A DNA stretch of 64,000 nt from an uncultured Clostridium sp. (lineage in GTDB: Bacteria; Bacillota; Clostridia; TANB77; CAG-508). The stretch spans positions 24,879 through 88,878 of the forward strand of contig CAZDPV010000002.1 in assembly GCA_964507565.1 (NCBI GenBank), in the 5' to 3' direction. The notes under the pieces were generated by a model. That model searched no databases, was not told where the DNA came from, and was given only the letters and a program-made list of their open reading frames with translations. A program made the translations under genes and the position numbers. Below are positions 6,197 to 6,445 of the stretch, one piece after another; positions within the stretch are counted from its first letter, which is position 1, and every line of letters starts with the position of its first letter.

Positions 6197-6445
6197 ATGG
6201 AAACAATTTTGGCAGCAACATTAAATTGCATAGGAATTATGTTAGGACTAACATTCTTAGGATTTGGAATAGGTATAGGTATTTTAGGCTCAAAGGTTGC
6301 AGAGGCAGTTGGAAGAAATCCAGAAACAAAAAGTGATATCATTCATTCAGTAATGACAATACTAATTGTTTTAGCAATATTTTTACTATTACTATTTGCA
6401 TTTGTATTTTTACTATTATTCTATAATCCATTAACATTACAATAG
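6197..6445 (+). CDS. atpE: F-type ATPase c-subunit-like proteolipid that lacks the conserved ion-binding carboxylate
   Basis: The 82-aa protein is a two-helix hairpin. Helix 1 has the glycine packing motif [10 protein letters not shown], and the polar loop GRNPE matches the conserved RQPE/RQPD loop. Helix 2 ([28 protein letters not shown]) contains no Asp or Glu. The position 17 residues after the loop Glu, equivalent to E. coli cAsp61, is Ala60. An AGGAGG-type RBS sits upstream, 14 nt after the previous stop. Confidence 0.75.

Follow-up and report, generated by a model that had tools for sequence, protein, structure and literature searches.

Can a rotary ATPase keep its membrane ring and part with the ions that such a ring is expected to carry? 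The question is raised by one small gene in a stretch of 64,000 nucleotides (hereafter, the window) from an uncultured Clostridium sp., which covers positions 24,879 to 88,878 of contig CAZDPV010000002.1:

6197 to 6445, + strand: c-like proteolipid of 82 amino acids, with the GxGxGxG motif, the RNPE loop and Ala60 replacing the ion-binding carboxylate

Rotary ATPases are textbook ion-coupled machines; to our knowledge, the only accepted exceptions are the F1-like ATPases of mycoplasmas, in which Fo was wholly discarded. The c-like gene belongs to an operon for an F1-type ATPase and giant surface proteins. We presume, with a probability of about 0.6, that its product is the rotor of an F-type ATPase derivative which, judging from sequence, works as an ATP-driven mechanical device uncoupled from ions and serving the surface proteins.

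The ion-binding position of the c-like protein

Is the protein a c subunit at all? The open reading frame (ORF) is preceded by the strong Shine-Dalgarno sequence AAGGAGG and encodes the very protein quoted in the original prediction, which described an 82-residue c-subunit hairpin with the GxGxGxG motif and the GRNPE loop; this description was borne out, and two transmembrane (TM) helices are predicted. The score against Pfam PF00137 (ATP-synt_C) is 33.6 bits and passes the gathering cut-off of 24, which answers the doubt, admitted from the outset, that the gene might be unrelated to c subunits. The protein falls under all NCBIfam equivalog cut-offs for c subunits (the top one is NF005363, 35.7 versus 71). 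Its best solved matches found by phmmer are c1 and c2 of Acetobacterium woodii (4bem) and the chloroplast c subunits. In terms of the PF00137 hallmarks, the above-threshold score, the hairpin, the GxGxGxG motif and the R-[QN]-P loop are all present, and the membrane-embedded Glu or Asp of helix 2 is missing. Some public records label such genes “F0F1 ATP synthase subunit C” or “F-type H+-transporting ATPase subunit c”; labels of this kind can mislead metabolic reconstructions of small-genome gut lineages.

To establish the register, positions were counted by script in five phmmer alignments with solved c subunits. Ala60 stands opposite Glu61 of spinach, Glu59 of pea (chain numbering), Glu62 of A. 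woodii c2 and Glu79 in hairpin 1 of A. woodii c1; it also pairs with Gln162 in hairpin 2 of the latter, which we take to be the known natural hairpin devoid of the carboxylate. The alignments contain no gaps from the RNPE loop to the C-terminal NP[LF], and the register is thus pinned at both ends. The assignment of Ala60 to the carboxylate position, made originally by counting from the loop acid, agrees with all five alignments, and none of these structure-based alignments places an acidic residue at the ion site. The partner residues of a Na+-type site, i.e., the helix-1 Gln, Thr and Tyr, are replaced in the c-like protein by Ile27, Ile61 and Leu65.

Can another residue serve as a substitute ion site? 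Asp47, Glu36 and Glu43 are proximal to the loop, and the canonical A. woodii c2 has all three; therefore, they are generic loop residues rather than a relocated ion site. Both Asp47 and Glu36 were rejected on this ground, the more so as Asp47 lies at the cytoplasmic boundary, 13 residues ahead of position 60 and outside the membrane core. His50 was rejected as well, since its position is occupied by H, Q, S, N, G or R across the c-like family. The claim that helix 2 contains no Asp or Glu consequently holds for the membrane core, but not for the whole stretch quoted in its support, which begins with Asp47.

Position 60 is not a peculiarity of one genome. The identical c-like protein was found on 13 contigs from independent sequencing runs, so it is not a sequencing artefact. 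Among 121 close homologues (76–90% identity), the position is Ala in 120 and Ser in one; in 67 distinct orthologues from 86 loci, it is A in 33, T in 24, S in 5, V in 3, I in 1 and F in 1, and is acidic in none. These 67 sequences have no acidic helix-2 residue past position 47, and no conserved charged residue of any kind occurs in the helix-2 core. A search of 1.84 billion cluster representatives extended the clade lacking the carboxylate to 35–60% identity, with V, I or F at position 60, and c subunits bearing the Glu appeared only at weaker E-values. Orthologues with a normal Glu or Asp, which would speak for a decaying copy in the window, are therefore missing from the close homologues, the distinct orthologues and the remote members alike.

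The pattern of constraint is instructive. Pairwise dN/dS (the ratio of nonsynonymous to synonymous substitution rates) of about 0.07–0.25 indicates purifying selection, and the c-like protein is the best conserved one in the cluster, with a median identity to the window of 70% (beta, 63%; alpha, 58%). Variation is nearly absent from the loop AE..GRNPETK and the glycine packing motif of helix 1; among the aligned family members, G22, G24, G26, G28 and G31 together with R40-N41-P42 are conserved, most of them invariantly. Constraint is weakest in the middle of the membrane span of helix 2, and the commonest residue at position 60 accounts for only 49% of sequences. In canonical c subunits, by contrast, helix 2 is conserved best at the ion site. 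The pattern fits a ring that would still assemble and bind the central stalk and would have no ion site to preserve.

A separate observation concerns two database matches from outside the window. P0148 (1139 amino acids) and P0158 (631 amino acids) consist of 14 and 8 tandem A/V-type c (K) hairpins, respectively, each of which retains the glutamate of “VLAEAL”; a single chain thus amounts to a whole or half rotor ring, which recalls the multi-hairpin subunit of Methanopyrus.

The operon and its distribution

What does such a ring belong to? The c-like gene is the third of 11 genes on the same strand, with intergenic gaps of -17 to 47 nucleotides and all 11 reading frames intact. The other ten, in their order, are as follows:

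1 to 4755, + strand: giant surface protein A, with the N-terminus cut by the window start and fn3-like repeats
4776 to 6182, + strand: p468, a single-pass protein of 468 amino acids (TM 12-30); its juxtamembrane domain is conserved, and it also has a Gly-rich linker and fn3 domain(s)
6493 to 7320, + strand: b-delta fusion (b275) of 275 amino acids, with an N-terminal TM helix, a long stalk helix and a delta/OSCP-like C-terminal domain
7347 to 8696, + strand: F1 alpha-like subunit of 449 amino acids, with the P-loop GDKKTGKT, the Arg finger (SVSRLGG) and the N-terminal helix retained
8686 to 9477, + strand: F1 gamma-like subunit of 263 amino acids, Pfam ATP-synt 97.7 bits (the mechanical ORF start is 8674)
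9470 to 10828, + strand: F1 beta subunit of 452 amino acids, TIGR01039 (atpD) 476.9 bits versus the cut-off of 462.85
10866 to 11159, + strand: epsilon-like subunit of 97 amino acids, N-terminal beta-sandwich only; in the canonical position after beta, a weak assignment
11175 to 11744, + strand: m189, a polytopic membrane protein of about five helices, located where an Fo partner is expected and lacking the invariant Arg
11728 to 12459, + strand: p243, a single-pass protein of 243 amino acids (TM 17-35) whose extracellular domain has no recognised fold
12506 to 21562, + strand: giant surface protein B of 3018 amino acids, with TM helices 26-44 and 2982-3000, fn3-like repeats and a GLUG-motif region

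The F1 part looks catalytically competent, as the catalytic motifs of alpha and beta are intact: in addition to the alpha motifs listed above, the alignment of beta retains the Walker A motif GGAGVGKT, the catalytic GERSREG, Walker B and the DELSEQD loop. The C-terminal domain of alpha is about 55 amino acids shorter than usual; its N-terminal helix is, in the canonical enzyme, the docking site for delta/OSCP. An alternative start of b-delta at 6469 gives 283 amino acids. The model of b275 (pLDDT, predicted local distance difference test, 77.7), built like the other structure predictions on a comparatively shallow alignment, comprises a 72-residue TM-plus-stalk helix, after which come six short helices and one longer one, and a sheet of four strands. 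The top 30 or so Foldseek matches of this model are nearly all delta/OSCP chains of ATP synthases, including the mycobacterial b-delta fusion; the hits are individually weak (the best has an E-value of 0.022 and a probability of 0.90), and it is their agreement that leads us to read b275 as a probable b-delta fusion. The family profile of the epsilon-like protein weakly matches mitochondrial delta, a homologue of bacterial epsilon, over the signature region (E 0.74), and the equivalent gene in a distant locus (L007) matches PF02823. Thus, among the components expected of a holoenzyme, the catalytic alpha3beta3 (Walker A and B, catalytic Glu, Arg finger) with the gamma shaft and the peripheral stalk (b plus delta/OSCP) are present.

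Not among them is a subunit a, in which an invariant Arg of the membrane part should face the c-ring. Pfam and NCBIfam give no ATP-synt_A match in the operon, and a profile of m189 compared with PDB gives no match to subunit a. A conserved polar membrane position exists in m189, where the residue is N, K, R, Q or S; Arg occurs in 13 of 56 sequences. Hence the ion path cannot be recognised in either of its halves: aliphatic residues stand in place of the c carboxylate and its partners, and no subunit a with the invariant Arg was found. The prediction that the ring is unable to couple rotation to ion flow is thereby supported, as far as a sequence-based argument can carry it.

The ATPase genes are obligatorily linked to those of membrane-anchored surface proteins. 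The p468 gene lies directly upstream of the c-like gene in nearly all loci. Of the 67 loci in which tblastn matches giant A, most have it upstream of p468; an N-terminal TM helix is present in 57 of its 67 orthologues, and its length in one locus (L001) is 1754 amino acids. The GLUG-motif region of giant B scores 34.2 bits in Pfam, and both its TM helices are flanked by basic residues on the terminal side; about 2900 residues would form a single, doubly anchored extracellular loop. Apart from fn3 and GLUG, no informative match to p243 or to giants A and B was found in Pfam, NCBIfam or PDB, and NCBIfam has no match at all for either giant.

How widespread is the system? A pattern scan with one genome per GTDB species found relatives in 343 species-level genomes, mainly of gut Clostridia and Bacilli. 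The hosts include Lachnospiraceae, among them the cultured Kineothrix alysoides KNHs209 and Hominiventricola filiformis CLA-AA-H276, as well as records titled Oscillospiraceae, Erysipelotrichaceae and uncultured Bacilli or Mycoplasma (e.g., “Mycoplasma sp. CAG:472”); we take the last two to represent the RF39 lineage. Small-genome Clostridia such as “Clostridium sp. CAG:354” (86% identity) are among the closest relatives of the window. When the window's 11 proteins were compared by tblastn with 91 fetched loci, the 11-gene order proved near-universal and is shared by Lachnospiraceae, RF39-type Bacilli, Erysipelotrichaceae and Oscillospiraceae. The distant versions L007 and L009 keep the c-like, alpha, gamma, beta and epsilon genes; their c protein also lacks the carboxylate, and subunit a was not recognised in them. 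No second rotary ATPase operon was seen in the window or in the 10-kb flanks of 80 genome loci, the rest of these genomes being outside the scan. Carriage by mobile elements was considered and rejected, as b-delta has no tblastn match in plasmid or phage collections. A full-text literature search returned no description of this cluster.

Several variants of the layout deserve mention. The gamma gene is relocated behind p243 in RF39-type Bacilli (L012, L016-L025, L028, L030, L060), and three loci (L066, L069, L087) have the c gene ahead of giant A, on its upstream side. Two metagenome-assembled genomes carry two whole copies of the cluster each (L076 and L090; L040 and L091). L007 and L008, both distant versions, come from JGI 3300013843 and 3300013842; in L007, 20 kb have almost no Pfam matches except for the ATPase subunits, and an 82-residue three-helix protein takes the place of m189. 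In the minimal form, L009, the c-like, alpha, gamma, beta and epsilon genes come after those of two small single-pass proteins.

The 3' end of the operon in the window is marked by a promoter-hairpin-thrS layout resembling a T-box leader: a perfect sigma-70 consensus promoter at 21580-21608, right past the giant B stop, and a strong terminator hairpin at 21820-21847, just upstream of the threonyl-tRNA synthetase gene (21899-23824). Rfam gave no T-box match upstream of thrS at the gathering threshold. The remaining window is housekeeping DNA, which also encodes tRNA synthetases and NusA/IF-2. It contains SpoIVA (27444-28925, minus strand), a group consisting, in this order, of FtsE and FtsX, a tandem pair of PcsB-like M23 peptidases and an S41 protease (48054-53449), and a class A penicillin-binding protein with a PASTA domain (60136-62769). 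Given SpoIVA, FtsEX, the PcsB-like peptidases and the class A penicillin-binding protein, the host is walled and spore-forming. The ORFs at 25113-27311 (732 amino acids), 39302-40144 (280 amino acids) and 56721-57920 (399 amino acids) have no Pfam match; the first of them has none in NCBIfam either.

A proposed mechanical output and rival explanations

What could such a complex do? We propose that the b-delta stalk would hold alpha3beta3 via the retained N-terminal helix of alpha, and that ATP hydrolysis would turn gamma/epsilon and the c-ring against the b-delta/m189 stator with no ions moved. The mechanical output would be taken up by p468, p243 and giants A and B. It is tempting to speculate that TM helices of the single-pass proteins or giants are placed in the ring lumen or at the interface of the ring with m189, so that the extracellular domains might be turned or cyclically pushed; single-pass helices do occur inside V-ATPase c-rings. 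On the exterior of a walled Gram-positive cell, the possible outputs are adhesion and release, surface movement, or remodelling of the giant proteins.

Could the complex be a dedicated export or assembly ATPase instead, which helps to translocate, fold or insert the giants? There would be a parallel in FliI/FliJ of flagella and type III secretion, which are homologous to F1 alpha/beta and gamma. The tight linkage to giant secreted or anchored proteins agrees with this option, as does the need of the giants to cross the membrane, giant B being anchored at both ends; alpha and beta also score against the FliI/SctN models, as all F1 subunits do. We nevertheless consider it unlikely: the c-ring, gamma, epsilon and the b-delta stalk are retained, whereas type III export ATPases have no such apparatus for rotation against a stator, beta scores 476.9 bits with atpD but only about 231 with the FliI models, and Pfam and NCBIfam detect no export-gate homologues in the operon. 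To a scaffold or regulator that does not rotate, in which the c-like ring and b-delta anchor an F1-like nucleotide-dependent switch or clamp for surface proteins, we attach slightly less credence still. It would account for the lack of an ion path or identified load, which leaves rotation without direct evidence, and the G1-ATPase of Mycoplasma mobile acts as a dimeric chain rather than a free rotor (PMC11864180). Yet no part of the c-like protein is better conserved than its gamma/epsilon-binding loop; and gamma, the DELSEED-like loop of beta and the stator stalk, all features of torque transmission, are kept although they are superfluous for a simple anchor.

An ion-translocating ATPase or synthase, acting through a site that has escaped recognition or through a mixed ring with a subunit a supplied by a canonical operon at another place in the genome, seems to us distinctly improbable. 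A Gln does occupy the site in hairpin 2 of A. woodii c1 inside a working Na+ ring, and m189 has its conserved polar, often basic, membrane residue; but the only c gene of the operon has no acid in 67 of 67 distinct orthologues, its partner residues are aliphatic, the helix-2 core has no conserved charge, and the m189 position is not a conserved Arg. Furthermore, the middle of helix 2, where canonical c subunits have their most conserved site, is least constrained here, and the operon has its own complete F1 and stalk with surface proteins rather than bioenergetic genes for partners. As for an ATP synthase operon that was duplicated and is now decaying, or an error of assembly, the missing carboxylate and the short alpha might suggest it, but we give it practically no credit: pseudogene and error are both rejected by the 13 contigs that carry the identical protein, the non-acidic position 60 of the homologues, the dN/dS values and the 11 intact frames, and relatives in 343 species-level genomes keep the gene order across several families. 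The original conclusion, that the complex is probably an ATP-driven rotor or a scaffold used for something else rather than a synthase or a pump, is in keeping with the F1 motifs, the putative b-delta stator and the operon with giant proteins.

Some points weigh against the ion-uncoupled mechanical device that we favour. We infer rotation, the absence of transport and the link with the surface proteins, all three. The residue in the middle of the membrane in m189 is always polar (52% Lys/Arg), and m189 may have a degenerate a-like role; a canonical c or subunit a from elsewhere in the genome might join the complex. The delta-like assignment comes from many weak and mutually consistent Foldseek hits with no single strong one, and that of epsilon is weak. 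In p468 and p243, sequence conservation does not extend to the TM helices, whose contact with the ring is hypothetical.

A more specific and more tentative proposal, to which we would give somewhat less than an even chance, is that walled gut Firmicutes (Lachnospiraceae, Oscillospiraceae, Erysipelotrichaceae, RF39-type Bacilli and small-genome Clostridia) possess a hitherto unrecognised, ATP-driven transmembrane rotary motor in which an ion-blind c-ring passes torque to giant fn3/GLUG-motif surface proteins instead of an ion gradient. It would be the free-living, Fo-retaining counterpart of the gliding and MIB-MIP motors of mycoplasmas, possibly close to their evolutionary start. The design appears intermediate: the c-ring, peripheral stalk and F1 are kept, both halves of the ion path are lost, and the whole is tied to giant surface proteins, in a system widespread in abundant bacteria of the human and animal gut, cultured strains included. 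If this is true, a membrane rotor can be used to transmit the energy of ATP mechanically across the membrane, some of the largest uncharacterised proteins of gut Firmicutes receive a role, and a route by which the mycoplasma motors evolved is suggested.

Comparison with known rotary ATPases

The bacterial F1Fo ATPase, especially the clostridial Na+ type (A. woodii, PDB 4BEM), shares with the window operon the order c, b(-delta), alpha, gamma, beta, epsilon. The GxGxGxG hairpin, the R-N/Q-P-E loop and the C-terminal NP[LF] of the A. woodii c subunit are there, together with the intact F1 motifs and a delta-like stalk. In contrast to A. woodii and bacterial F1Fo, Ala60 replaces the carboxylate, and its partners Gln, Thr and Tyr are changed for Ile, Ile and Leu; no atpB (subunit a) is recognisable in the window operon, b and delta are fused, alpha is shortened at the C-terminus, epsilon is reduced to the N-terminal domain, and four genes for surface proteins reside inside the operon. 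A. woodii has one ring hairpin without the acid, whereas here the sole c gene is without it.

The N-ATPase (the alternate F1Fo with the order atpDCQRBEFAG) is likewise a second, divergent F-type operon, which in some bacteria exists beside the housekeeping enzyme. N-ATPases keep a carboxylate-bearing c and a subunit a, and translocate ions. Membership in this group was rejected on the basis of the scores (TIGR03305, 425.3 versus 752; TIGR03324, 355.7 versus 750.5; TIGR03323, 32.6 versus 282; TIGR03322, 14.5 versus 131), and the gene order also differs.

The mycoplasma F1-like ATPases have been called mycoplasma-specific. Their Type 3 (“F1-like X0”, the MSC_0618/0619 family) is required for the antibody-cleavage function of MIB-MIP (PMC12994834) and is regarded as a source of mechanical energy for the cell surface (PMC12994834, PMC3369863). 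It resembles the window operon in having F1-derived alpha, beta, gamma and epsilon, no recognisable ion-translocating Fo and a linkage to surface proteins (PMC12994834, PMC3369863). The seven genes of the Type 3 cluster, however, include those for a protein with 12 TM helices, a cytoplasmic protein of 19 kDa and a membrane protein of 87 kDa; the cluster has no c-like gene and is ordered differently, and its alpha lacks the stalk-binding N-terminal helix, which the window alpha has. Membership in Type 3 was rejected, since alpha scores 301.9 versus 520 with MSC_0619 and beta 411.7 versus 570 with MSC_0618 (NCBIfam); the different gene content and order also speak against it, and no MIB or MIP domains were found in the neighbouring genes.

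Is the operon closer to Type 2, the G1-ATPase of M. mobile? Gli123, Gli349 and Gli521 of that species are giant, membrane-anchored surface proteins. In its published structure, the G1-ATPase is reportedly a cytoplasmic chain of hexamer dimers that has neither a c-ring nor a b-delta stalk. The enzyme is the proposed driver of gliding (PMC11864180, PMC7052211). An F1-like ATPase in company with very large membrane-anchored surface proteins is the feature it has in common with the window operon. The host of the window has a peptidoglycan wall. Membership was again rejected by NCBIfam (MMOB1660, 380.3 versus 600; MMOB1670, 387.4 versus 850); beta of the window covers only profile positions 230-683 of 705 in the Type 2 beta model, i.e., the long N-terminal extension of the Type 2 beta is absent. 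Both alpha and beta of the window score higher with canonical atpA and atpD than with the mycoplasma families.

Mycoplasma Types 2 and 3 are by analogy a precedent for F1-like ATPases that power surface machines. Judged by its subunits, the system in the window is by descent an F1Fo operon closest to the clostridial type, one that fails two defining tests of the ion-coupled enzyme; in its presumed way of working, it is most analogous to the F1-like ATPases of mycoplasmas, being a member of neither type. We believe that it is new: a putative repurposed F-type ATPase, widespread in gut Firmicutes, which unlike the mycoplasma examples appears to have retained both the c-ring and the peripheral stalk.

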